Shown here piece by piece: positions 5,256-32,476 of a stretch of DNA of 64,000 nucleotides (positions are counted from its first letter, which is position 1; every line of letters begins with the position of its first letter). Origin of the DNA: a virus; the UHGV virus genome UHGV-0293664; one strand, 5' to 3'. Made by a program: the position numbers and the translations under genes. The notes beneath the pieces were generated by a model. The model saw nothing but the letters and a program-made list of their open reading frames with translations. It searched no databases and had not been told where the DNA came from.

Positions 5256-5284
5256 TTGACTATTGTTACAAAATTTGGTAAAAT
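5256..5284 (+). promoter_or_regulatory. sigma70-like promoter
   Basis: TTGACT, 17-nt spacer, TAAAAT. Confidence 0.55.
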
Positions 5285-5317
5285 ACCTTGTAGAGATTTT
5301 CATACCGGAGGAGTGAC

Positions 5318-6808
5318 GTGGCTAAGTATGGATTGACAGAGGCTGGTTTCGTTATACCAACCCTAAATGACCTAATCGTTGAAACTAAGCAAAGCCTGAT
5401 CCGTGCTTTTGGCGAAAACTTCAACGTACAGAGTAACTCCGTTGCAGATAAGCTGACCACTATCTTCAACGAGCGAGAGTATCAACTTATTCTTATGGCA
5501 GCATCTGTATACGCATCACAGACGCTGTATGGGGCAGAAGGTATTTACCTGGATGAGCTTCTTGGAAGACAAGGTATTTACCGAAGAGGCCGTTCTAAAT
5601 CATCAGGTACCTGCCAGTTGACAATCAACACAACTGTGCCGTACAATATGATTTACGATTCCAAAACTTACACACTGGACAGTGGGAACTTTGTTCTTAG
5701 CAATGACGTGCAGGTAGCGGGAAATCTTATTGCTCATAGGATAAACGCTCCAGATCTAAGAATTGGGAAATACAACTTTCAAATTACCAACCAGACAGAT
5801 GGAAGTATCAAAACAAAAAGTCTGGTTTTAACAGATAAGGCTCTGGACTCTTCTGATCTGCCAAGCTTTTACGGAGAGATTAAGCAGTTCATTGTCGATA
5901 ATACAACCCTGTTGAACGACGATTTGATTCAGATCGATATGTTGACAGGAACGTTGTGGATAGGGTACAATTCGAATCTTGATCAAGTTGGACTTAATAG
6001 TAGAGTAGATTTCAGGGTATCCCCGATTGTAGGGGAAAGAACTATTACCCTGGATGTTATCGCTAACGAGGCTGGTGAGCTGTCAAGAGAGGCAGAAACC
6101 GTGACAACAATGTCGCCTACTCCCAGCGGATTTATCAAACTCACCAACCGAGAAAGATTCAATGAGGGTAGGGATGTTGAGAAAGACTCAGAGTATCGCT
6201 TAAGAGCTTCCAGCACAAAACAGTTAACATCTAAGGCTACCCGTCCTGCAATCCTTAGCGCTGTAAGCGAGGTGAAAGGTGTTGAGAAAGTGAGAGTGTT
6301 CTCCAACAACACCGATAAAACTGATGCTAAAGGTATACCTCCTTACAAGTTCCAAGTGGTTGTGTTTGGTGGTGCAACGGAAGACATTTGCCAAGCACTT
6401 TACCAAACTATAGCCTGCACGAACAGGACTTATGGTAATATTTTCTACGATGTCACTACATCTGACGGTCAAACTGAAAGAATTTATTACTCCAAGGCAA
6501 ATACCTACCGCCTAGATGTAAGAATTACCTACTCCGGTGCTGCGCTTTCCACAACCGAAAAAGATGCCATTACAGAGGCCCTTTTGCATGTTGTTAACGG
6601 ACTAGATGTTGCAGATACGTTGTACAATATCCAATTGGTCGGTGCTGCATCTGCTGCTGTGTCGATAGGCAGATTTAATAGACTGGTAATTCAAGTTAAA
6701 CCAGTAGGAGCTTCTGATGAAGCTTACACTACAAACGATATTGTTGCGAACATGACCGAGGTGTTTGACCTCGACGAAAGTAATATAACTTTCCAACAAA
6801 CTATTTAA
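5318..6808 (+). CDS. Tail/baseplate structural protein
   Basis: 496 aa; GTG start with GGAGGAG RBS; located in tail module. Confidence 0.5.
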   Translation: MAKYGLTEAGFVIPTLNDLIVETKQSLIRAFGENFNVQSNSVADKLTTIFNEREYQLILMAASVYASQTLYGAEGIYLDELLGRQGIYRRGRSKSSGTCQLTINTTVPYNMIYDSKTYTLDSGNFVLSNDVQVAGNLIAHRINAPDLRIGKYNFQITNQTDGSIKTKSLVLTDKALDSSDLPSFYGEIKQFIVDNTTLLNDDLIQIDMLTGTLWIGYNSNLDQVGLNSRVDFRVSPIVGERTITLDVIANEAGELSREAETVTTMSPTPSGFIKLTNRERFNEGRDVEKDSEYRLRASSTKQLTSKATRPAILSAVSEVKGVEKVRVFSNNTDKTDAKGIPPYKFQVVVFGGATEDICQALYQTIACTNRTYGNIFYDVTTSDGQTERIYYSKANTYRLDVRITYSGAALSTTEKDAITEALLHVVNGLDVADTLYNIQLVGAASAAVSIGRFNRLVIQVKPVGASDEAYTTNDIVANMTEVFDLDESNITFQQTI

Positions 6809-9590: not shown

Positions 9591-10631
9591 ATGTCAAAAC
9601 CTAGTTTTCCATTAGAGATTTGGGCAGAGGAGGATCAGGTTCTGCCTAACACCCACAGACAGAACAGGCTACGCCCGATTGATGATTTGTGGAGAAAAGG
9701 TTGGGATCTTGGTCAAAAGCCATCCTGTGAAGAACTTAACTATATTTTCAATATGCTCGGGACTTGGGCAAAATACATTGCTGACGAGCAGATCCCCGCT
9801 CAAGAAGGCCGCTATCTGGTACGTGATAATAACTTGAGTGATCTTTTAAACATCCCTGTTGCCCGTAGAAACCTTGGAATTATTACTAAGGAAGAGGCAG
9901 ACGCCAGGTATGTAAAAGTTACAGGTGATACAATGACAGGCCCATTGGGTTTGCAACGTATCAACTTTAAAGCTGCCGAGACAGATAAGGCTTGGATAGA
10001 GACAACTATTGGCCCAGATAAGACAACTCTTGACTTTGGGTTAAGTGATAATATTGGGGCGTTCGATGATGGTGGCACATCTACAGTGGATGCGTTCCGT
10101 TGGAGATTCCAGCCAACTCAGCCGGACATTAATCCAGAGTTCACTTTAATGTACCTGAACGCAATCACGGCTAATCGTGCGTTGTTGAAAGTGGTGGGCA
10201 ATGTTGAAGTTGTTGATAACATGCGGTGTAATAACCTCACCATTAGTAGCACAGCAACATTCACTAACTGCAATGTAGCCAGTCAGTTGACAGCTGGGTC
10301 AGTATATGTCAATGGCGGTGCAAGTTGTGATAGTATGGTTGTAAGAAGCCAGCATTGTGTTGTCGGTAACAGAAATGTGGTGCGCTCTGTGAATGGAGTG
10401 ACGGCTAACGGCAACGGCGATGTAACGATCACCATCCCACAGACAGGTGTACAGGATATCAGAATCGGTGCAAGACTTGTTGATGGCGTTTCTGAATCTC
10501 CAATCCGCAACGGATACGTTGTCACAGGTTGGCATTTTGGTGACAAAAAAGAGATGCGTGGTTCAACTTACTGGGCAGGACCTTTACAAAAACTTGTAAA
10601 TGGTCAATGGATCACTGTTAATTATGCATAG
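9591..10631 (+). CDS. Tail fibre / receptor-binding protein, paralog A
   Basis: 346 aa; N-term MSKPSFPLEIWA and C-term KLVNGQWITVNYA shared with 11646..12689. Confidence 0.65.
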   Translation: MSKPSFPLEIWAEEDQVLPNTHRQNRLRPIDDLWRKGWDLGQKPSCEELNYIFNMLGTWAKYIADEQIPAQEGRYLVRDNNLSDLLNIPVARRNLGIITKEEADARYVKVTGDTMTGPLGLQRINFKAAETDKAWIETTIGPDKTTLDFGLSDNIGAFDDGGTSTVDAFRWRFQPTQPDINPEFTLMYLNAITANRALLKVVGNVEVVDNMRCNNLTISSTATFTNCNVASQLTAGSVYVNGGASCDSMVVRSQHCVVGNRNVVRSVNGVTANGNGDVTITIPQTGVQDIRIGARLVDGVSESPIRNGYVVTGWHFGDKKEMRGSTYWAGPLQKLVNGQWITVNYA

Positions 10632-11241: not shown

Positions 11242-11556
11242 GTGGAGTTGGATTTGGCGGCATTGTACGGTATCTGTATGGGTACCGTTGTCCCGATCTG
11301 TGTATGGGCTTTCAACCAGTGGCACACCAAATGGAAAGGCATTTCCCAGAGGTTGGATGAACTGGAGAAAGACCTCATCTTAGTGAAAAATAGTATGGTT
11401 ACAAAAGATAGACTTGATTCCGTTATCGAGACCCGGTTAAGCAAGCTAGAGGCCGATATTAACGACCTTAAGCAGGATGTCAGGACAGATGTCTCCGGCA
11501 TCCGAGCTGATGTACAAAAGATTTTGCACATGCTCGTAGAGCATAGTAAAAGGTAA
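11242..11556 (+). CDS. Small membrane-anchored coiled-coil protein
   Basis: 104 aa; GTG start; N-terminal hydrophobic helix then heptad-like region. Confidence 0.45.
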   Translation: MELDLAALYGICMGTVVPICVWAFNQWHTKWKGISQRLDELEKDLILVKNSMVTKDRLDSVIETRLSKLEADINDLKQDVRTDVSGIRADVQKILHMLVEHSKR

Positions 11557-11564
11557 ACAAAGGT

Positions 11565-11600
11565 CAGAACGGAAAGGACTCCGTTCTTGCATTTTGTTCT
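11565..11600 (+). terminator. Rho-independent terminator
   Basis: CAGAACGG...CCGTTCTT stem followed by T-rich tract. Confidence 0.6.
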
Positions 11601-11645
11601 CTAAAGTGTTAAAATAGTCCTAAGGAATTTTCTCAGGAGAACGCG

Positions 11646-12689
11646 ATGACTAAACCAGTTATCCCTCTTGATATTTGGGCCAATCAGGATGTTGTGCTTG
11701 AAAATACGGGAGAGTTGAATAAATCTCAACCAAAAAAAGAAGAGAGATTGAAAGGTTGGGATATGACACAAAGAATGGCATGTGAAGTTGTTAACTTTGA
11801 ACTTCACATGCTTTCTGCGTGGTTGAAGCATTTAACAGAAGATGTTGTCCCAGGATGGGATAATAGATTCTTAAGGGTCACTAATAACCTAGCAGACGTT
11901 CCAGACAAAGCTGCTGCACGTCAAGTTCTCAATGTATACTCACCTGAAGAAATGGACGATCTATATGTTGACAAGTCTGGAGACATAATGACTCAGACTC
12001 AAACTTTAGGTCTTCAAAGAATCGAGTTTGCATCTGCGTCAACAGACAGTGCGGCAATATACACCACCATAACTCCAGACAAGACGACGATGGATTTCTG
12101 GATTATGGACAACATCGGTGGTGCTGACGGCACAGACCTTGATGATCCTTCTCACCAAATAGACGGGTTCCGTTGGAGATTTCAACCTTCTGGTGGGCAG
12201 CCTGTGTTTTCGGCTATGAAGCTCAATGCTATAACTGCCAACCGTGCAAGACTGGCTATCCAAGGAAATCTTGAATGTAACGATGCAAAAAGTTCCTCTG
12301 CAAATGCCAATGCGGTCACGATACCAAGAGCCACTGTTAACGGACAACAATCCTGCGGAAGCGCTCAAATAGGTGGAAGAGTTGATTGTAACGATGAAAC
12401 CGTTAGGGGCCAATATGCAACCGTTGGTGGAAGAAACGTGGTCCGCAGGGTAAATGGTAACAGCGCAGACGGTAGTGGTAACCTTACTATCCCTATGCCT
12501 AGCAGAGGGGTTGATGATGTAAGGATAGCGAACCGTTTCAAAACCACCTACAGAGAGTCAAGAGTCTACCCTGGACATGTGATGTGCTCTGGTAACTACG
12601 CCTATAAACACCCTTATCAAGGTGATTACTGGACAGGTGCTATCCAAAAACTTGTAAATGGTCAATGGATCACTATATCTTATGCTTAA
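11646..12689 (+). CDS. Tail fibre / receptor-binding protein, paralog B
   Basis: 347 aa; N-term MTKPVIPLDIWA and C-term KLVNGQWITISYA shared with 9591..10631. Confidence 0.65.
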   Translation: MTKPVIPLDIWANQDVVLENTGELNKSQPKKEERLKGWDMTQRMACEVVNFELHMLSAWLKHLTEDVVPGWDNRFLRVTNNLADVPDKAAARQVLNVYSPEEMDDLYVDKSGDIMTQTQTLGLQRIEFASASTDSAAIYTTITPDKTTMDFWIMDNIGGADGTDLDDPSHQIDGFRWRFQPSGGQPVFSAMKLNAITANRARLAIQGNLECNDAKSSSANANAVTIPRATVNGQQSCGSAQIGGRVDCNDETVRGQYATVGGRNVVRRVNGNSADGSGNLTIPMPSRGVDDVRIANRFKTTYRESRVYPGHVMCSGNYAYKHPYQGDYWTGAIQKLVNGQWITISYA

Positions 12690-20410: not shown

Positions 20411-20440
20411 AAAAAGGGGCCGTTTGGCCCCTTTCTTTTT
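20411..20440. terminator. Bidirectional rho-independent terminator between convergent operons
   Basis: A-run, GGGGCC-GTTT-GGCCCC hairpin, T-run. Confidence 0.8.
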
Positions 20441-24429: not shown

Positions 24430-24693
24430 TCAGAAACCCTCTAAAAAGCTCTTGTAGAAAACAATCTCAGTGTCCACACCAGTCACAATCTTGTCGTTCC
24501 TGATTTCATCGGTAAGATAGGTGTCAAAACGCAGAACCTGTGTGGTGTTGTCACACATCCACTCAGCTGTGACCATTGCGAAAATCTTAGCATCTTCATT
24601 ATCCGGTGTAAATGTTACCACCTCACCGCATTTAAACTTTTCGATAGGTTGAGTGTTAGCTTTCGGCTCTGCGATAGTGATTTTTGTGGTCAT
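24430..24693 (-). CDS. Small protein, tandem paralog 3
   Basis: 87 aa; CGEVV and FD motifs shared with neighbours; start overlaps upstream stop. Confidence 0.5.
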   Translation of the reverse strand: MTTKITIAEPKANTQPIEKFKCGEVVTFTPDNEDAKIFAMVTAEWMCDNTTQVLRFDTYLTDEIRNDKIVTGVDTEIVFYKSFLEGF

Positions 24694-24956
24694 TATTCTC
24701 CTCCTTGTTTTGAATAGCTTGTCTCTCCAAGGATGGTAATTTTGGTATCAAGCTCTGTAACTTTCATGTTTGGTGGCAGATCGTACAACTCCTTATTTTC
24801 TAAATCGAACCCCCACACACAATGTTCTCCTGTTTTGACAATCATAACTATGTTTTGAATGCCGTCTCCGTCGCAACTTACCACGGTCCCACACGGAAAA
24901 CTATCTGCACGCTTTTTGTTCTTCACCTTAGAATTGAATACAATGCTAGTAGCCAT
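24693..24956 (-). CDS. Small protein, tandem paralog 2
   Basis: 87 aa; MAT...K.KK...GTVV...WGFDL...VTELD...ILGE shared with paralog 1. Confidence 0.55.
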   Translation of the reverse strand: MATSIVFNSKVKNKKRADSFPCGTVVSCDGDGIQNIVMIVKTGEHCVWGFDLENKELYDLPPNMKVTELDTKITILGETSYSKQGGE

Positions 24957-25219
24957 TATTGTTCCTCCACCATAACTTCGCCAAGAATTTCTATGCAGGC
25001 ATCCATTTCTGTAACAACCAAGGTGTGAGGTAGTTCTGCAAACACCTTTCTGAACAGGTCAAATACCCCAACATATATGTTTGCAGGATGTGATTTTACA
25101 ACAAGTGCTGTATTCACATCCCCAAGTTCATCAACAAACATCACCACAGTGCCTGGAGCTACTGAAGACAGATACTTCTTAGTTTTACGGTTTGATGCAA
25201 ATTTTAACTCTGTTGCCAT
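24956..25219 (-). CDS. Small protein, tandem paralog 1
   Basis: 87 aa; AAGGAGG RBS; same length and motifs as paralog 2. Confidence 0.55.
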   Translation of the reverse strand: MATELKFASNRKTKKYLSSVAPGTVVMFVDELGDVNTALVVKSHPANIYVGVFDLFRKVFAELPHTLVVTEMDACIEILGEVMVEEQ

Positions 25220-25234
25220 AAATAATCTCCTCCT

Positions 25235-26716
25235 TTATTTAGCGTACTCGATTAATTCCACAGTTTTCCCAAAGCTCGGGATATAATTTTTATTATACCC
25301 CTCGGTGAGAACCCATAAAGTATCGTACTTTTTCCACTTGTTGTCAACAGCCTTTTGTTCAAAGTTATGCTCAAAGTATAGGTCGGTCAGGACGATGACA
25401 TCTTTTGCATTCGGTATATTGGCATCCAGATACTCGAACACGCAAGCAGCTGTTGTGCCCCATGTTGAGTGGACCTCATAGTTGATCATCTCATCTATGT
25501 TACCGCGAGTGTATACTTTAACCTCTCCAACCTCAGTTGACCAACAGAACATTGTAACCTTAAACTCTTTATACAGATTGCACAATCCGGTGATTTCATT
25601 GAACATTTTCTTTAAAGTTCTTTGAGAGATCGAGCCAGAAACGTCTAAAGCCACCACAATATCTATGGTGTTTTCCGGATTACGACCAGGAACAATAACG
25701 TGCTGGTTCTTGTTTATAGCCCCAACTTTTCGCATTGTGCTGGTCAAAGACCCAGATCGGCGACCAGGTTTTCTGTAGGTCAGTTCAGCCTTTCGTTTAG
25801 ACAACATGCGTTGCTTAATGATATCTATATAGTTGATTACAGGCTTGCCTCTGTTCTTGACAAACTCACGCACCGCCTCAGGGCAACGACCTCCGGAAGC
25901 TTGCATTGCTGCCTCCAGCATGTCACCAGAATCCTGCATGGCCTGATCTTTATCAGATTGGCTGATTACAGGTTGTGGCCGATCATACCCCATAGCCTTC
26001 CCAAGATCATCGCTGGTGCCACCGTTCCCGCTCATGTGATCATCGGTTTGTCGCTTATCTCCTTGGGAGTTATCACCTTTACCGCTCTTACTTTTACCGT
26101 TATTTTGATCTCTTTGCCTATCAAGAACTGCATAGACGTTCTCAGCAATCCATCCATGAAACTTCATGTCGCAGTAGCAGCTGGCTAAGAAACCAAAAGG
26201 CTTACCTTTTACGAACGTAGTGCTTTTCCCCTTCGGGAAGAAAACACAAGGGGGCTTGCTAAAGTCAACCACAAGACCTGTGTTGATAACGTGATCACAA
26301 GCAATATTGAACAGTTCCGGCTCAAAGCTTTTGCCACGGACCAGGTGATCACAGATAATATGCCCCACCTCATGTGACAGAAGGAAAGCCACCTCTTTCA
26401 CAGATTTGGGGGAATAGAAAACTTCAGCCATCTCAAACTGCTCTCCAGTTAGAGAGGCCTTGAGAATAGCCTTGCGTTCATCAGCCAACCCCATAATGAA
26501 CTCAGGACTGTAATAGATGCGTTTATGGTCGGTTGCCATGGTGGAGCACCATGTGTGGTTTTCTACGAACTGTAACCCTGACAGCAGTGTGCCATAAAAC
26601 GGCAGCTTTTCAAGGAGATACATACGTGCAGCCTGTAACATTCTCAGGGCATCATCTTTCTGTGAGGCAATGATTTCTGAACTTCTGCTATCCATTAAAA
26701 CTCCAGAAGGGGCCAT
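25235..26716 (-). CDS. vWA-domain protein with N-terminal zinc-metallopeptidase motif
   Basis: 493 aa; HEVGH (HExxH) and VVALDVSGSIS (MIDAS DxSxS). Confidence 0.7.
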   Translation of the reverse strand: MAPSGVLMDSRSSEIIASQKDDALRMLQAARMYLLEKLPFYGTLLSGLQFVENHTWCSTMATDHKRIYYSPEFIMGLADERKAILKASLTGEQFEMAEVFYSPKSVKEVAFLLSHEVGHIICDHLVRGKSFEPELFNIACDHVINTGLVVDFSKPPCVFFPKGKSTTFVKGKPFGFLASCYCDMKFHGWIAENVYAVLDRQRDQNNGKSKSGKGDNSQGDKRQTDDHMSGNGGTSDDLGKAMGYDRPQPVISQSDKDQAMQDSGDMLEAAMQASGGRCPEAVREFVKNRGKPVINYIDIIKQRMLSKRKAELTYRKPGRRSGSLTSTMRKVGAINKNQHVIVPGRNPENTIDIVVALDVSGSISQRTLKKMFNEITGLCNLYKEFKVTMFCWSTEVGEVKVYTRGNIDEMINYEVHSTWGTTAACVFEYLDANIPNAKDVIVLTDLYFEHNFEQKAVDNKWKKYDTLWVLTEGYNKNYIPSFGKTVELIEYAK

Positions 26717-26728
26717 TGGCCCCTGTTA

Positions 26729-27718
26729 TTATTTAACGTGTTTGAAAATACCTGCCAACTCGGTCATTGTCATGCGGGTGGTCTTCATAAGATCTGTCAT
26801 AGCTTTCTCCATAATTGGGGATACTACCATAAAGTTTCCTTTAGTGAAACCTTTATTCCAGTCGGTCACCAACAGTGGTTTAAGTCCAGCTCCGAGACGT
26901 TCACCAGTTAAAGCACAACATTTTCGAATGTATGTGCTCTTAAACTGGCTGAATGACAGATCCACTTTCATACCTGCATCGTAGAACGTCTGGCAATAGA
27001 AAGTGTAAGCTTTGGCAATCTCAACATCGTCAGGCAGTGCAGGAACCTCTTCTGTAAGCTCTTCTTCGACCCCTTGAGGCTCTTTTTCCTCTTCGTAAGC
27101 CTGTTGCGTCATCTCTTCAATCTCCTCTACTACAGGCTCGTTTACAATGTCAGAAATGTGCTTGTTGGCTCCACGATTAGCCATGAAGTTTTTAAAATCC
27201 TGCATTGGTGACATATCTTCCTCCCATTCTTCGTCAAAGAGTGCCAGTTTATCCTCTTCCGTTCCATATTGCAAGATGAAATCTTCAAAAGTGTAATCAC
27301 CTTTCAATTTCTCCATACGCTCTTCGCTCAGGTGGAGCATCATCTGCTGGACAATTTTTCGATCAGTTTTGTCTTTAATCAAGACTGCGGTCTTTTTATC
27401 TACCAGACAGTCCTTTAGAGAGTTGCATCTCAACCCTACCACACAACAGTTATCAACCGCATAAGGGCCTTCATCATCTATCCGCTCTAGAGATGGGTAG
27501 AAAGGATTTCCCAGTCCGTTTTCATCCGTGTGCATGTCGAAAGGTATAAGGGTATAGTCGCATACTCCATCTCCTAAAAGTTTTTTACCAAATAGGAGAT
27601 ATTCTTCCCATGACAGGTTGAACTCTATATCTCGTTTCCGTGCATTATTCTGTTTGCGTCTGTATTTTTTGAGCAAGCGCTCTAACTCTTCTGGTGTATA
27701 ATATTTTTCAAGATTCAT
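26729..27718 (-). CDS. Putative HNH-like (endonuclease VII-type) nuclease with acidic linker
   Basis: FNLSWEEYLLF...C...ERIDDEGPYAVDNCCVV module, weaker second copy; ATG 27718 preferred over in-frame TTG 27784. Confidence 0.4.
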   Translation of the reverse strand: MNLEKYYTPEELERLLKKYRRKQNNARKRDIEFNLSWEEYLLFGKKLLGDGVCDYTLIPFDMHTDENGLGNPFYPSLERIDDEGPYAVDNCCVVGLRCNSLKDCLVDKKTAVLIKDKTDRKIVQQMMLHLSEERMEKLKGDYTFEDFILQYGTEEDKLALFDEEWEEDMSPMQDFKNFMANRGANKHISDIVNEPVVEEIEEMTQQAYEEEKEPQGVEEELTEEVPALPDDVEIAKAYTFYCQTFYDAGMKVDLSFSQFKSTYIRKCCALTGERLGAGLKPLLVTDWNKGFTKGNFMVVSPIMEKAMTDLMKTTRMTMTELAGIFKHVK

Positions 27719-27749
27719 GAGTTGTCTCTTGTGCTCTGTGGGTGGAGAA

Positions 27750-27778
27750 ATCTTACCAAGGGCCTGGGAAGATGTCAA
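27750..27778 (-). promoter_or_regulatory. sigma70-like promoter for leftward operon
   Basis: On minus strand TTGACA, 17-nt spacer, TAAGAT. Confidence 0.5.
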
Positions 27779-27791
27779 CCTCAAAAACGTG

Positions 27792-27820
27792 TTGACTTTA
27801 CTCTAAATCCTCGATATAGT
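27792..27820 (+). promoter_or_regulatory. sigma70-like promoter for rightward operon
   Basis: TTGACT, 17-nt spacer, TATAGT. Confidence 0.6.
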
Positions 27821-27860
27821 GCACCCATTCGAAAGAAAACTAGCATAGGAGTACTTATTC

Positions 27861-28760
27861 ATGGCAAATCTTAACAGTTTTAGCACCAGGTGGCAACAGG
27901 ATATAACAACCAATCTTTCAGCTGGAGATATCCTTTCTGCAATTTACGAGGCTTTGGATGATAAAGCTACTTCAAGATCGGTTTGTACTAATCCGCTAAT
28001 TCCTATAGTGATGAAGGTAATTGAGCGGAGGTTGGTATCCGGGTCTGATAAGTGGACATACCTTGATAATGGAGGGCATACTTACTCCAACGGATATGTT
28101 GATATAAAAGTGGAATACGCAGTATCATACCGCCGGAGCGGTTCTGTAACTTTCAACTTCTCTGGAGGTTTTCGATCTCTGGCTACTTCACCTTTTGTTT
28201 CCTCAGAGGAGAAGTATGAGCTGCCATTTCTTTGGATGATGGCTAACGCGACAGGAAAAACCCCCGTTAGCATCCGAGTAAAATACAACTACAACGGATC
28301 TAGTAAGATCTATGCCGAAAGTGCCTCAGCAAGTTTTTATTTTGTGATGGGGGATGGAATCCTCAAACATATAAAGATGTGCGATATGCATGATGTTATA
28401 AATGAAGTGACTGATAAGAATGTTCTAGTGAAAGACCTCAATAATTTTTATACACCTGGAGACTATTACGTCAACCGCCCACTGTGCATCTTTAATGCCG
28501 CACACCCTTTAGGTGAGTATTTGATCGCCAATAGCGATATTGCCAATAACCGCTTCGAGGTAGCAAGAGTACAGAATGAGGTATTGACATCTTGCAAGAG
28601 CGGTGATAAGTTTACCGAAGAAGAGATGGGTGTTTTAGAAATGATGGGATATAAGTGTAGCCTTTGGGTAGATGAGGTGTTTAATGACTGCATCTATGGA
28701 CAGGATATTTACCCGTTAAAGAAGTATACTGATTCCAGTTTAATTTACGCGGAGATTTGA
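27861..28760 (+). CDS. Hypothetical protein
   Basis: 299 aa; AGGAG RBS. Confidence 0.55.
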   Translation: MANLNSFSTRWQQDITTNLSAGDILSAIYEALDDKATSRSVCTNPLIPIVMKVIERRLVSGSDKWTYLDNGGHTYSNGYVDIKVEYAVSYRRSGSVTFNFSGGFRSLATSPFVSSEEKYELPFLWMMANATGKTPVSIRVKYNYNGSSKIYAESASASFYFVMGDGILKHIKMCDMHDVINEVTDKNVLVKDLNNFYTPGDYYVNRPLCIFNAAHPLGEYLIANSDIANNRFEVARVQNEVLTSCKSGDKFTEEEMGVLEMMGYKCSLWVDEVFNDCIYGQDIYPLKKYTDSSLIYAEI

Positions 28761-28762
28761 CT

Positions 28763-29035
28763 ATGATGAAGTCATGTGGTAGTGTATATTATGTTGGTGA
28801 GAATGTTCAGGCAGACAGCGTGTGGAAATCCATTAAGTCTACCACCGACGATGCCTTCTTGAGCGGGTTATGTTTTCCCAGCCCTGGGGACACTCTCCCT
28901 TACCCTGGAGATTTTGTTGTCAACAAGATGGACGGTTATACCGTGTGCCTGATGGTTGAAAAAATCTTTTTAGACACTAGACACAATCACCGTCTTGTGT
29001 TAAAATTTCAAGAATGTAAAATGACAATTGCCTAA
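28763..29035 (+). CDS. Small hypothetical protein
   Basis: 90 aa; ATG 28763 preferred over track TTG 28757. Confidence 0.45.
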   Translation: MMKSCGSVYYVGENVQADSVWKSIKSTTDDAFLSGLCFPSPGDTLPYPGDFVVNKMDGYTVCLMVEKIFLDTRHNHRLVLKFQECKMTIA

Positions 29036-29048
29036 GGAGGCCTTGCCT

Positions 29049-29405
29049 ATGTCTAAAGTTACGTATCGTGCAGCTATTTACTGCAATGAACACCCAATCA
29101 ATAATGATGGTCACTGCCTTTTTAAAGAAAATCAGTTGGGCTGTATTGTCCTCCCTGATGAAGGGAAAGGTTATCTGATTGCATTGACAGGGTTTGAGCC
29201 TGAAGCTTTGGAAGCCAATCTGGACTACCTGGTAGAAGAGGGTGCTGCAGACCTGGTTGCCAATGGCCTCTCCATAAACCTTGACGAAGTGGAGCGCTTC
29301 ATGGGCAATTACCGTGTAGTGCGTGAGTTTACTATCGAGGTGGAAACTCCAGAGTGGGGTAGCCCTGAAACTAATACCGAAGAAAAAGAAGAGGAGGTAG
29401 AATAA
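29049..29405 (+). CDS. Small acidic protein
   Basis: 118 aa; ATG 29049 with AAGGAGG RBS; Glu-rich C-terminus. Confidence 0.5.
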   Translation: MSKVTYRAAIYCNEHPINNDGHCLFKENQLGCIVLPDEGKGYLIALTGFEPEALEANLDYLVEEGAADLVANGLSINLDEVERFMGNYRVVREFTIEVETPEWGSPETNTEEKEEEVE

Positions 29406-29662
29406 TGAAAGTGCAGATTTTGACTAATGCCGAGAAGATGTTTATTGAAGATACACCTTTTGAAGCTGGTGAGCTACAGTTCGTTTATTTTGTTGACTTA
29501 GATAAGGTGTTCCCTGCACTGAATCTGGGTCTGGATGAAGTTCCTCATAAGGTTTTGTGCCAAGTTGTTCGTGCTTTAGCGGCAGATGGGGAGTTCCACA
29601 CTCTTGAAGATATCCAGACCTACGGGTATCTTGAACTACAACGAGAAGAAGAGGTGGATTGA
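29405..29662 (+). CDS. Small acidic protein
   Basis: 85 aa; TAATG overlap with upstream gene. Confidence 0.5.
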   Translation: MKVQILTNAEKMFIEDTPFEAGELQFVYFVDLDKVFPALNLGLDEVPHKVLCQVVRALAADGEFHTLEDIQTYGYLELQREEEVD

Positions 29663-29664
29663 TA

Positions 29665-30045
29665 ATGGCCCGATGGAAGACAACGGTTGACCTGCATGAT
29701 CAGTGGTTAGGACGCATCACTGAAGACGGGAAACTAGTAGAGTGGGACAATAAACATGTCAGCGAGTTGGCAAGTATTGTGGCTGGCAAGTTACGCTCCA
29801 AGTTCCCTGAACAACTGGATCCTGATAATTCAAAGTTCGATCCTGAGTTGGAGGATGTTGTATACTACTTCGATACCGTGGATGACTACGATGCGTGGTT
29901 TGCAGCACGGGAGCTTTACCCACAAGGCTCCGCTATGCGTCAGATGGAAGAAGATTATCCTCCGTGCGAGCAATTCAATAGCGCAATGACTTGCCTCTAT
30001 GATTGGGCAGATAAGAACCTTGTCTGGATCCGGACTGCATTCTAG
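29665..30045 (+). CDS. Small acidic protein
   Basis: 127 aa; ATG 29665 with GAGGTGG RBS. Confidence 0.5.
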   Translation: MARWKTTVDLHDQWLGRITEDGKLVEWDNKHVSELASIVAGKLRSKFPEQLDPDNSKFDPELEDVVYYFDTVDDYDAWFAARELYPQGSAMRQMEEDYPPCEQFNSAMTCLYDWADKNLVWIRTAF

Positions 30046-30051
30046 CAGGCT

Positions 30052-30354
30052 GTGGCAAGGATGCCACTTAAAAGAGTAATAAGCATGTTATACCAGAAAC
30101 ACAAACTTTGTGCAGAAAAAGAGTTAAATTTTGACAAAGTTATCCACAGATATTGTTATGGGAAAACCGGAAGACAACTAAGAAGGTGTACCCCAACATT
30201 CTTTCACCCCAGTAGACGGCTAAGTCCTGAAGAAGCAACAGCAGAAAGGGTTGCATACAACTGGGAAGTTGTGTACGATATTGACAGATCCGATGTGGCA
30301 TCTGTTTTGGAAAACTTTGAAAACACTTACACACAAGTAGAGGACTTTTACTAA
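30052..30354 (+). CDS. Hypothetical protein
   Basis: 100 aa; start uncertain (GTG 30052 or ATG 30061); stop overlaps AAA gene start. Confidence 0.4.
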   Translation: MARMPLKRVISMLYQKHKLCAEKELNFDKVIHRYCYGKTGRQLRRCTPTFFHPSRRLSPEEATAERVAYNWEVVYDIDRSDVASVLENFENTYTQVEDFY

Positions 30355-31538
30355 TGTCAAGAAACGTATTTGAAAGTGGTCAAATCACTGTCCGTGAGTT
30401 GCCAGCTATCATTCAGTTTGCCCAGCGTCATAACCGATCTGTCCTGATTTTAGGACCAATGGGCGTGGGGAAGAGCCAGGTGATGAAGCAGATTGCCGAT
30501 AATATGTTCGGTGAGCGAGATGACAACCTGGTTGACGTGCGACTGTCAGATAAAGATCCTGCCGACTTATCTGGGCTACCTATCCCTGTAGAAGCGGATG
30601 GAACTACACGTACAGTGTTTGCAATTCCAGAATTCTGGCCTGCAGATCCAGACTGGAGCGGGATTATCTTTCTGGATGAGCTTACTCATGCAGATAACTA
30701 TCTACAAAAGGTTGCAATGCAGATTATGCTCGACCACAAGTGCGGCACCTATGCATTCCCTAAAGGCTCTGTTTTTGTGGCTGCGGGTAACCGTTCTACA
30801 GATGGTGCGGTTCTTTCGGCGCTCGAAGCCCCTCTGGCTAACCGTTTTATCATTGTAGAAGTTACAAGCAATGCAGAGGTGTTTATTGAGGACTACGCAT
30901 TCCTTAATGGGGTGCATTCCTCTGTAATTGGGTATCTGAAAAGAGTTCCATCAGCTATCGATAATTATGAGGCTATGGCTGAGATTAATTGTCCATCTTT
31001 TGCCACACCGCGATCTTGGGTTGCTGCATCTGACATCTTGCACGATTTTGACAGCGGTATTATTTCTGACGCTATGGCCCGTGTTCTTCTGCAAGGTGCT
31101 ATTGGTCACACTGCAGCGGTAGAGATCTGGACCTACCACACCAAGAAACGCAACTTACCGGAAATCGGTCGGATTATGGCAGGGGGTTGCAAAGAATACG
31201 TAGGTCCTAAACAGCCAGACATTTTGTGGATTCTTGGATCTGAAGGTTGTATCGCTATTCGTAATATGATGGAAAATGCAAGTATCTCCGACGAAGATCT
31301 TGTCAGCTGCGTGGCAAACTTCCTCGATTTCCTTTGGGAAAACTTCAAAGACGAGAACCGAGATTTTGTATTCTCAGTCTTTATGGCGATGATGAAACCT
31401 AATGCCTTAGGAAATGCCTTGCTTATCGGTAAAGGGCGTGACAAGATTGTTGCTCAGCTGATCAAAGCATACCCAAACCTGATGAAGATTGTAAAAGAGT
31501 TTGGTGAAGAGTTTAGCGCCATTTTGGCTAAAGCTTAA
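30354..31538 (+). CDS. AAA+ ATPase, MoxR/CobS-like
   Basis: Walker A LILGPMGVGKSQ, Walker B IIFLDELTHA. Confidence 0.7.
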   Translation: MSRNVFESGQITVRELPAIIQFAQRHNRSVLILGPMGVGKSQVMKQIADNMFGERDDNLVDVRLSDKDPADLSGLPIPVEADGTTRTVFAIPEFWPADPDWSGIIFLDELTHADNYLQKVAMQIMLDHKCGTYAFPKGSVFVAAGNRSTDGAVLSALEAPLANRFIIVEVTSNAEVFIEDYAFLNGVHSSVIGYLKRVPSAIDNYEAMAEINCPSFATPRSWVAASDILHDFDSGIISDAMARVLLQGAIGHTAAVEIWTYHTKKRNLPEIGRIMAGGCKEYVGPKQPDILWILGSEGCIAIRNMMENASISDEDLVSCVANFLDFLWENFKDENRDFVFSVFMAMMKPNALGNALLIGKGRDKIVAQLIKAYPNLMKIVKEFGEEFSAILAKA

Positions 31539-31547
31539 GGGGGTTGT

Positions 31548-31928
31548 ATGGCTAAAGTAGGTAAGCGGGGAAACTACCTGGTGGTATTGACCGAGGAGCC
31601 AGAGAAGGAGTACGAATGCAGCTCCACTTGCGTGATCGATATCCGAGAAAAAGATGTAGATGAAATCTGGTTTGAAATATTAGACGCTTGCGACAGCAGT
31701 GATTATTTCTTCATCTATGTCAACGATAAGGCTGGGTTCTTCCATGACGACGGAGAGTTGCCGTATGAAATCTATGAACTTGTAGAGGCTTGCCATCGCG
31801 GAGATGCGGAGTTGTTTGGCCTACGGCTGAAAAGCGGTAAATTCTTCTATCAAGATGAGTGCATGAATCTTCATAACTTTGTAGAGGGAACTTGCAACGA
31901 TGGAGAGATTTTGGCACACTACGATTAA
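31548..31928 (+). CDS. Small acidic protein
   Basis: 126 aa; Asp/Glu-rich. Confidence 0.5.
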   Translation: MAKVGKRGNYLVVLTEEPEKEYECSSTCVIDIREKDVDEIWFEILDACDSSDYFFIYVNDKAGFFHDDGELPYEIYELVEACHRGDAELFGLRLKSGKFFYQDECMNLHNFVEGTCNDGEILAHYD

Positions 31929-31937
31929 TTTCTAAGA

Positions 31938-31965
31938 CACCCCGCTTCGGCGGGGATTTTCTATT
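31938..31965 (+). terminator. Rho-independent terminator
   Basis: CCCCGC-TTCG-GCGGGG hairpin then T-rich tract; same hairpin as at 5218. Confidence 0.7.
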
Positions 31966-31975
31966 TGGAGTTATT

Positions 31976-32476
31976 GTGAAAATTAAGATCTTTGCTATTA
32001 TTTTGAGCGCATTTTTATCGCTGCCTGTTGTTGCAGCACCAAAACAAAAAGTATATCATACTTGCAAGCCCTCAGATACTAAGGAAAACATTCTGGCATG
32101 CAATATCTACAGGGAAGCTAGAGGGGATGGCACGATGGGTATGCTGGCATCTGGGTTTGCCACACTAAACAGGAAATCTCACCCCAAATACCCAGACACT
32201 ATAAGAAAGATCGTCTACCAACCTAACCAGTTTTCGTGGACAAACCACGGCAAAACTTTTAAGGTGACAGAAAAAGATTCATGGGATCACGCTAAAAGTC
32301 TTGCAAAGATGCTTCTAAAGGTCTATAATAACAACCATGTTGCATACATGGCTATGGATATAACAGGTGGAGCAACACACTACCATACAACCAAAGTACG
32401 ACCGAAATGGGCAAAAAAGATGCAGAGGACAGCTCAATTCGGGAACCATATCTACTACAAGGAGCGCAATAAATGA
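31976..32476 (+). CDS. Secreted cell-wall hydrolase, SleB-like
   Basis: GTG start after GGAG; signal-peptide-like N-terminus; YREARGDG...NR...YQPNQFSW motif. Confidence 0.55.
   Translation: MKIKIFAIILSAFLSLPVVAAPKQKVYHTCKPSDTKENILACNIYREARGDGTMGMLASGFATLNRKSHPKYPDTIRKIVYQPNQFSWTNHGKTFKVTEKDSWDHAKSLAKMLLKVYNNNHVAYMAMDITGGATHYHTTKVRPKWAKKMQRTAQFGNHIYYKERNK

Follow-up and report, generated by a model that had tools for sequence, protein, structure and literature searches.

A MoxR-class ATPase gene split from its zincin-vWA partner by a bidirectional promoter in V5-like phages: probable origin by inversion and a likely role in counter-defence

Can the two components of a protein machine still be partners when their genes lie in different operons on opposite strands, and how would such an arrangement have come about? 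This question is raised by the viral genome UHGV-0293664, of which a stretch of 64,000 nucleotides (the window) contains a gene for an AAA+ ATPase of the MoxR class and, in a separate transcription unit, a gene for a protein with a von Willebrand factor A (vWA) domain. A sequence-only reading of this DNA had pointed out that MoxR ATPases normally work with a vWA protein, and had suggested that the two are either a split pair that is expressed at different times or that the ATPase acts alone. The analysis described here leads, with a probability of about 0.6, to the view that the ATPase and the vWA protein, which has also a putative zincin metallopeptidase domain, form a two-gene module that was split by an inversion, that this module has a counter-defence role, and that both genes are early, the vWA gene being attenuated. 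Coordinates of the features are collected in Table 1.

The window belongs to a Vequintavirus-type (V5-/rV5-like) phage of E. coli and has 95-96% nucleotide identity to rV5-like phages. Its bases 25000-32000, including the ATPase open reading frame (ORF), match 122 phage records at 90-99% nucleotide identity, with the Escherichia phages rV5_ev147 and EmilHeitz (Vequintavirus) on top at about 96%. The ATPase ORF is real and exactly as it had been proposed from the letters alone: its start codon shares bases with the stop of the ORF before it (ATGA), its product is 99-100% identical in amino acid sequence to the ATPases of other V5-like phages, and a ratio of nonsynonymous to synonymous substitution rates (dN/dS) of 0.007-0.026 versus two relatives indicates strong purifying selection. 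The ATPase gene, its family assignment and the type of its partner are already known and annotated: the ORF is gene 4 of rV5, tabulated as 'MoxR - ATPase, 394 aa' in the rV5 paper of 2013 (PMC3606486), and 'MoxR ATPase' is found as annotation also in many GenBank records. It was likewise borne out that the vWA ORF (25235..26716 in its longest form, minus strand, 493 aa) encodes the sole vWA protein, on the opposite strand and in a separate unit. In all six-frame ORFs of the window there is a single motif of the DxSxS type that is characteristic of a metal ion-dependent adhesion site (MIDAS), and family hidden Markov models (HMMs) run against these ORFs gave no second vWA/DUF2201 or MoxR-like protein. 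The units on the vWA side and on the ATPase side are separated by a divergent intergenic region of 142 bp.

As direct family searches were uninformative, the ATPase had to be placed by means of homologues, of a profile and of a predicted structure. No Pfam family reaches its gathering threshold with the ATPase itself, AAA_3 (PF07726) giving no match at all and AAA_5 staying below its cut-off, and in NCBIfam and in a single-sequence search of the PDB there are only sub-threshold matches that are confined to the P-loop region, whereas PHROGs assigns the protein to phrog_1297 ('ATPase', 1e-110). The HMM classification that the sequence-only reading had proposed as a check is thus informative only by way of the homologues, which (with about 35% identity across 85% of the length and E values of about 1e-45) bear PF07726 (AAA_3), PF07728 (AAA_5) and sometimes PF20030 (bpMoxR). 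A profile made from 36 homologues has the AAA modules of Midasin/Rea1 as its top match in the PDB (9e-10), and with the AlphaFold model (pLDDT 84, pTM 0.76), a Foldseek search of the PDB gives NorQ and CbbQ2 at ranks 1-14 (E 4e-8 to 1e-6, target-normalised TM 0.60-0.65). On these three independent lines, which are homologue domains, profile match and predicted fold, the ATPase is assigned to the MoxR class. The predicted model has a helix-2-insert beta-hairpin at residues 75-90 (strands 75-81 and 84-90, between beta2 and beta3), a short pre-sensor-1 hairpin at about 129-134 before beta4, and after the AAA+ lid about 130 additional helical residues (about 265-394) for which NorQ has no counterpart. 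Walker A (GPMGVGKS, 34-41), Walker B (DE, 108-109), sensor 1 (N146), the arginine finger (R164) and sensor 2 (R220) are all present, and these elements are invariant in the 36 homologues. Of the original label 'MoxR/CobS-like', the MoxR part is supported by the homologue domains, the Midasin profile match and the NorQ/CbbQ folds, and the CobS part has to be given up: an identity as CobS/CobT cobaltochelatase is ruled out, as neither a CobS_N nor a CbbQ_C match was obtained and the ATPase has a zincin-vWA protein as its partner instead of CobT. In the PADLOC defence models, the ATPase gives P-loop-level matches only (E >= 5e-4) and the vWA protein none.

The partner is clearly recognized by Pfam as a two-domain protein, with PF13203 (DUF2201_N, putative zincin; 4e-28, 99.1 bits versus a cut-off of 23.2) and PF09967 (DUF2201, vWA-like; 4e-11, 43.7 bits versus 26.4). 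It has the zincin motif HEVGH...H and the MIDAS motif DVSGS...GT...TD, and its vWA domain matches the VWA domain of NorD. Across 34 homologues, with identities as low as 20%, the HExxH, another histidine five residues on, the aspartate of 'ACDHVIN' and the full MIDAS set (D-x-S-G-S, G-T, T-D) are invariant, and an R-x-x-R-R just ahead of the beta1 strand of the vWA domain is almost invariant. The dN/dS is 0.04-0.07. The true start of the gene is most likely the ATG at 26695, which yields the 486-aa product, because this codon has a GGAG Shine-Dalgarno sequence, is the GenBank start and is the start in the 536-member cluster P0121; the upstream ATG is disfavoured because it lies within a hairpin loop and is missing in phage WalterGehring. 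The annotation of this family is confusing in public records: PHROGs tags it (phrog_1314) as 'HNH endonuclease', a label that recurs in dozens of records of N4-like, jumbo and V5-like phages, and single records name the protein 'DNA repair ATPase' or 'metallo-phosphohydrolase'. Pfam detects no HNH domain in it.

That the zincin-vWA protein is the partner of the ATPase follows from the relatives, in nearly all of which, outside the split lineage, the two genes are directly adjacent. In IMG/VR, the best 80 loci with an ATPase relative were considered, 70 of which have also a detectable DUF2201 gene, and in 68 of these 70 the ATPase gene is followed directly downstream by the vWA gene on the same strand. 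The two exceptions are a V5-like locus (L006) and a 53%-identical one (L007), with the vWA gene 3.6-3.9 kb upstream on the opposite strand, an arrangement like that of the window; of the 10 loci without a detected DUF2201 gene, 9 come to an end no more than about 310 nt from the ATPase gene. A scan of a genome collection with the ATPase alignment gave only 10 loci, all on contigs of metagenome-assembled genomes, and the pair is adjacent in 9/9 usable ones; the ATPase subfamily appears to be essentially phage-borne. Adjacent pairs are found on the contigs L002-L005, on the chromosome of Sulfurivermis fontis, in the N4-like phage Philippe with a spacer of 10 nt (the equivalents in N4 being gp24/gp25), and in the jumbo phage pEa_SNUABM_47, there just 3' of putative structural protein genes. 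Among 50,697 phage records, 813 encode the ATPase and 695 the vWA protein, the two breakdowns by genus being nearly identical, so the module occurs in roughly 1.5% of sequenced phages (about 700-800). In N4-like phages, in environmental relatives and in the window, the pair sits amid genes for early functions, replication and nucleotide metabolism. A pairing of MoxR with a vWA protein that is fused to an N-terminal metallopeptidase has already been described for jumbo phages (Iyer et al. 2021, PMC7824862). As judged from this gene-order record, the vWA protein is the ancestral partner of the ATPase, with the ancestral order ATPase then vWA. The general expectation that a MoxR ATPase goes along with a vWA protein hence holds for the family studied here, and comparative genomics supports the picture of a MoxR ATPase parted from its vWA partner, with the CobS alternative being dropped.

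The pair is split in Vequintavirus (the window and L006), in Seunavirus 4MG, in Avunavirus Av-05 and in L007, and it is adjacent in the Vequintavirinae phage A5-4 and in the 146-kb contig L005. In the latter two genomes, the genes of a SleB hydrolase and of a helicase are on the strand opposite to the pair, whereas in the split genomes the ATPase gene is co-oriented with SleB, rIIA/B and helicase genes and the vWA gene remains opposite. Because the strand of SleB and helicase relative to the pair differs in this way between adjacent and split genomes, the split is probably a derived trait of one lineage that arose by a single inversion across the early bidirectional promoter. In the simplest reading, one breakpoint of this inversion was between the ATPase and vWA genes, and the inverted segment carried the ATPase gene together with the bidirectional promoter region; the breakpoints are unmappable, because the small ORFs at the flanks have diverged too far. 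Since the split, all catalytic motifs have been retained in both genes, and both have remained under purifying selection. In A5-4, the ATPase and vWA genes have an HNH homing endonuclease gene (11285-11779) inserted exactly between them.

In the window, the two units start from divergent promoters that are arranged back-to-back, with their -35 hexamers 13 bp apart, and a similar divergent promoter pair is present in phage A5-4. The leftward unit comprises the gene of an Srd-like anti-sigma factor, then the vWA gene as the second gene, and small ORFs. No convincing copy of the rV5 late-promoter motif TGGTAAAATA was found upstream of either gene. Because both units have these back-to-back sigma-70-like promoters and no late-type motif, both genes look early, and they are probably expressed as such. 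The promoter P4, which is annotated in rV5 upstream of the ATPase gene, was considered as well, but in the window only its -35 element is kept, the -10 element is not conserved, and a promoter scan gives no call. On the other side, the hairpin that follows the ATPase gene and one further gene is likely the end of a first rightward sub-operon.

Within the leftward unit, the vWA gene has a GC-rich hairpin in front of its ribosome-binding site. In Vequintavirus, this hairpin is without a canonical U-tract, and at the same position in Av-05 (about 9960-10000 of locus L087) and in L007 (about 6075-6100) there are canonical intrinsic terminators with clear U-tracts and different sequences. Strict terminator-like hairpins are found also in 43/70 distinct ATPase-to-vWA spacers of relatives with adjacent pairs (L002-L098), as compared to 5.8% (14/241) for the remaining same-strand spacers of these loci and 0.7% for random windows. 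There is no hairpin in the 10-nt spacer of the N4-like phage Philippe, and because of this the hairpin is regarded as a trait of the Vequintavirinae and a large uncultured clade and not of all carriers of the pair. Its conservation suggests that in this branch the vWA gene is behind an attenuator, whether the pair is adjacent or split, and that the vWA protein is less abundant than the ATPase or dependent on read-through; the hairpin could lower or delay its expression. A lower level of the vWA protein than of the ATPase would fit the finding that a NorQ hexamer binds one NorD (PMC13036017). In the literature, no transcriptome was found for a V5-like phage.

What the ATPase may be good for is indicated by the V5-like phage Bas54, which has been subjected to transposon sequencing (2025 preprint, bioRxiv 10.1101/2025.11.20.689424, from which the Bas54 insertion and knock-out data given here are taken). 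The Bas54 gene table lists bas54_0055 as metallopeptidase, 0056 as anti-sigma factor, then 0057-0062, and 0063 as MoxR ATPase, in the same order and on the same strands as in the window, and the gene lengths are equal (1185, 1461, 978 and 900 nt). The orthologues in Bas49, Bas51 and Bas57 have the same gene order, and the Bas49 ATPase is 99.7% identical. On E. coli K-12, the two genes of the pair are both non-essential, with 81/86 and 60/64 TA sites hit (94%). On the clinical E. coli isolate CFE311, insertions in the ATPase gene bas54_0063 are depleted with a log2 fold change (log2FC) of -7.23 (q=0) and those in the zincin-vWA gene bas54_0055 with a log2FC of -2.20 (q=0.009), and the neighbours bas54_0054, 0056, 0057, 0062 and 0064 are unaffected, without significant changes. 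Knock-outs of bas54_0063 and of the small gene bas54_0140 are specifically sensitive to DS-28, which is a predicted defence system of CFE311 with two genes; on its make-up, nothing was found in the literature beyond these two genes, DS-28A and DS-28B. A homologue of bas54_0140 would fall beyond the end of the window. As the ATPase is dispensable on K-12 yet needed versus DS-28, counter-defence is favoured over virion assembly and is likely the role of the ATPase, and the vWA gene is weakly tied to the host-specific phenotype on CFE311. In supplementary file 9 of the preprint (HIDEN-SEQ), the numbers of the sheet that is named after CFE303 recur later in the file, with CFE311 data under both headings.

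Several points speak against a joint counter-defence module. The ATPase itself has only 16.7 bits with AAA_5, under the gathering cut-off of 22, and a physical complex with the vWA protein, including partner binding, hexamer formation and ATPase activity, is predicted by analogy. The counter-defence evidence comes from a preprint and was obtained with Bas54, the orthology of which has been established by identical gene order, strands and lengths and not by sequence alignment, and in the supplementary sheet 'resampling_K-12_vs_CFE303', it is CFE311 that is named in the command line and the data files. The phenotype of the vWA gene is the weaker one, and because about 27 genes are depleted on CFE311, several of them near a log2FC of -2, this depletion is no specific proof of a shared pathway; moreover, the second validated anti-DS-28 gene is bas54_0140 and not the vWA gene (bioRxiv 10.1101/2025.11.20.689424). 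Also the original rV5 record (DQ832317) is disturbing: in its vWA gene (5257-6720), HEVGH is replaced by HGVGH, and the reading frame is shifted after STWGTTA, so that two ORFs, 12 and 13, have been annotated, and the ATPase gene is intact. The damage could be due to a sequencing error or to decay in a laboratory stock, and the vWA copy of the window is, unlike that one, intact.

Some of these points can be read in favour of an ATPase that, in V5-like phages, is independent of the vWA-peptidase and counteracts DS-28 alone or with the bas54_0140 homologue, while the vWA-peptidase has another role or is being lost. The separation of the genes into different operons, the much stronger depletion of ATPase insertions, the choice of genes that the authors validated and the damaged HExxH and reading frame in the rV5 reference would all agree with this, but then it would be difficult to understand why both genes are kept together in about 118 V5-like records, why HExxH and MIDAS are invariant in the split clade and the vWA gene is at a dN/dS well below one, and why vWA insertions are significantly depleted on CFE311 when those in the neighbours are not. 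The characterised systems NorQD, CbbQO and RavA-ViaA do not provide any known MoxR ATPase without a vWA partner either. An ATPase acting alone, the main rival reading, is therefore disfavoured by the strict co-conservation and appears less likely. An involvement of the pair in virion assembly, as a chaperone with proteolytic processing of structural proteins, has been proposed for the module as it occurs in jumbo phages of group 2.2 (Iyer et al. 2021, PMC7824862), and the analogous MoxR-vWA pair p618/p892 of the Acidianus two-tailed virus as well as the position of the pair next to structural genes in pEa_SNUABM_47 would be in line with it. In V5-like phages this is largely refuted by the non-essentiality of both genes on K-12, and as the pair resides among early, replication and nucleotide-metabolism genes and there is no mass spectrometric evidence for either protein in rV5 virions (PMC3606486), such a function is very unlikely there. 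It may finally be considered whether, through the split, each partner has come to belong to a temporal class of its own and their complex would assemble at one defined stage only. The hairpin that lies directly upstream of the vWA gene, with its U-tracts in Av-05 and L007 and its strong enrichment in ATPase-to-vWA spacers, suggests an expression that depends on read-through, and the separate promoter P4 of the rV5 record would permit an own timing of the ATPase; however, both units begin at back-to-back sigma-70-like promoters, late-type motifs were not detected, the Vequintavirus hairpin has no canonical U-tract, P4 is incomplete in the window, and the short N4-like spacer is free of hairpins, which altogether makes a temporal separation unlikely.

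If ATPase and zincin-vWA protein are a split module as preferred here, their mode of action may be pictured by analogy to NorQ-NorD, CbbQ-CbbO and Midasin. In the pore of its hexameric ring, the ATPase would grip a finger-like extension of the vWA domain, the target would be bound at or near the MIDAS site, and ATP hydrolysis would pass on the force that remodels the target. The target may be a component or a product of a host defence system, it might be cleaved by the zincin domain, and the attenuator might keep the vWA protein sub-stoichiometric to the ATPase hexamer. It is possible, albeit tentative, that the pair is in this sense an ATP-driven, protease-armed counter-defence machine whose MIDAS recognises a host immune complex such as DS-28 for remodelling or cleavage, that the module serves as a general anti-immunity device also in N4-like, jumbo and uncultured phages, and that the hairpin sets a ratio of about six ATPases to one adaptor. 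If this is true, it would be the first described case of an anti-defence mechanism based on an AAA+ remodeller.

Some features in the surroundings of the pair deserve mention. The N-terminal approximately 100-130 residues of the Srd-like protein (ORF 26729..27784) match also PHROGs of endonuclease VII and HNH type (1e-10 to 1e-13), and no such gene was detected up to about 10 kb away from the pair in L005 and A5-4 (L086), which are the Vequintavirinae relatives with adjacent genes. For the ORF just 3' of the ATPase gene, homology to the hypothetical protein T5.083 of phage T5 is listed in the rV5 gene table (PMC3606486). Directly 3' of the vWA gene there are three consecutive ORFs of equal length with abutting stop and start codons and alike N-termini (e.g. 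MATSIVFNSKVKNKK..., MATELKFASNRKTKK...), which look like a small early gene that was triplicated in tandem. Among the database records, 16 are named 'Campylobacter phage', with C. jejuni written as the host, and are here 90-99% identical in nucleotides to V5-like phages of E. coli, which looks like mislabelling or contamination.

Table 1. Features of the window around the ATPase gene and its vWA partner gene
Feature	Position	Strand	Remark
Bidirectional terminator	20411..20436		end of the leftward early unit (rV5 genes 11-26), towards the late tail-fibre genes
Three 87-aa ORFs	24430..24693, 24693..24956, 24956..25219	-	directly 3' of the vWA gene
Gene with DUF2201_N zincin metallopeptidase and DUF2201 vWA domains, 486 aa	25235..26695	-	orthologue of rV5 gp12 and bas54_0055
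GC-rich hairpin AGGGGCC-AAU-GGCCCCU	26708..26724	-	between the Srd-like gene and the vWA ribosome-binding site
Srd-like anti-sigma factor gene (rV5 gp11)	26729..27718	-	promoter-proximal in the leftward unit, between promoter and vWA gene
Divergent intergenic region, 142 bp	27719..27860		between the two units
Sigma-70-like promoter TTGACA-17-TAAGAT, extended -10 TG	27750..27778	-	P11 as annotated in the rV5 record
Sigma-70-like promoter TTGACT-17-TATAGT	27792..27820	+	predicted to drive the rightward unit, with the ATPase gene as seventh gene
Gene of MoxR-class AAA+ ATPase, 394 aa	30354..31538	+	orthologue of rV5 gp4 and bas54_0063
126-aa ORF	31548..31928	+	just 3' of the ATPase gene, followed by the hairpin
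Terminator-like hairpin (CCCCGCTTCGGCGGGG then ATTTTCTATT)	31940..31955	+	one gene 3' of the ATPase gene

To what was already known, the present analysis adds the probable origin of the split by a single inversion, the hairpin that is conserved ahead of the vWA gene in split and in many adjacent arrangements, which suggests a deliberately unequal expression, and the link of the anti-DS-28 ATPase to a zincin-vWA gene across the promoter, a connection that is absent from the preprint although its table shows the depletion of the vWA gene. The arrangement as such is modestly interesting, and the mechanism is proposed by analogy to known systems. Closest to the window is rV5 itself, whose gp4 and gp12, corresponding to bas54_0063 and bas54_0055, are orthologues of the pair in the same order, on the same strands and with the same lengths; apart from the damaged vWA gene in the original rV5 record, there is no substantive difference. 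The pair of N4, gp24 (AAA ATPase) and gp25 (vWFA), and the jumbo-phage pair belong to the same two families, have the same order of ATPase then vWA and are phage-borne as well, but they are adjacent and co-oriented, whereas the window pair is split across a bidirectional promoter, and the identities are 21-30%. CobS-CobT likewise combines an AAA+ subunit with a vWA subunit, but there is no cobalamin context around the window pair. Midasin/Rea1 has AAA_5-type modules and shares the logic of an AAA ring with a MIDAS, but there six AAA modules are fused in one giant eukaryotic polypeptide, which has no peptidase. NorQ-NorD and CbbQ-CbbO of the MoxR CGN subfamily differ from the phage pair in that NorD and CbbO are without a zincin peptidase and serve in metal insertion or Rubisco activation, and in that the phage ATPase, at 15-21% identity to NorQ/CbbQ, has about 130 extra C-terminal residues; it is nevertheless these proteins that are structurally closest to the ATPase and that provide, with the vWA finger in the pore of the ring, the model for the phage pair.

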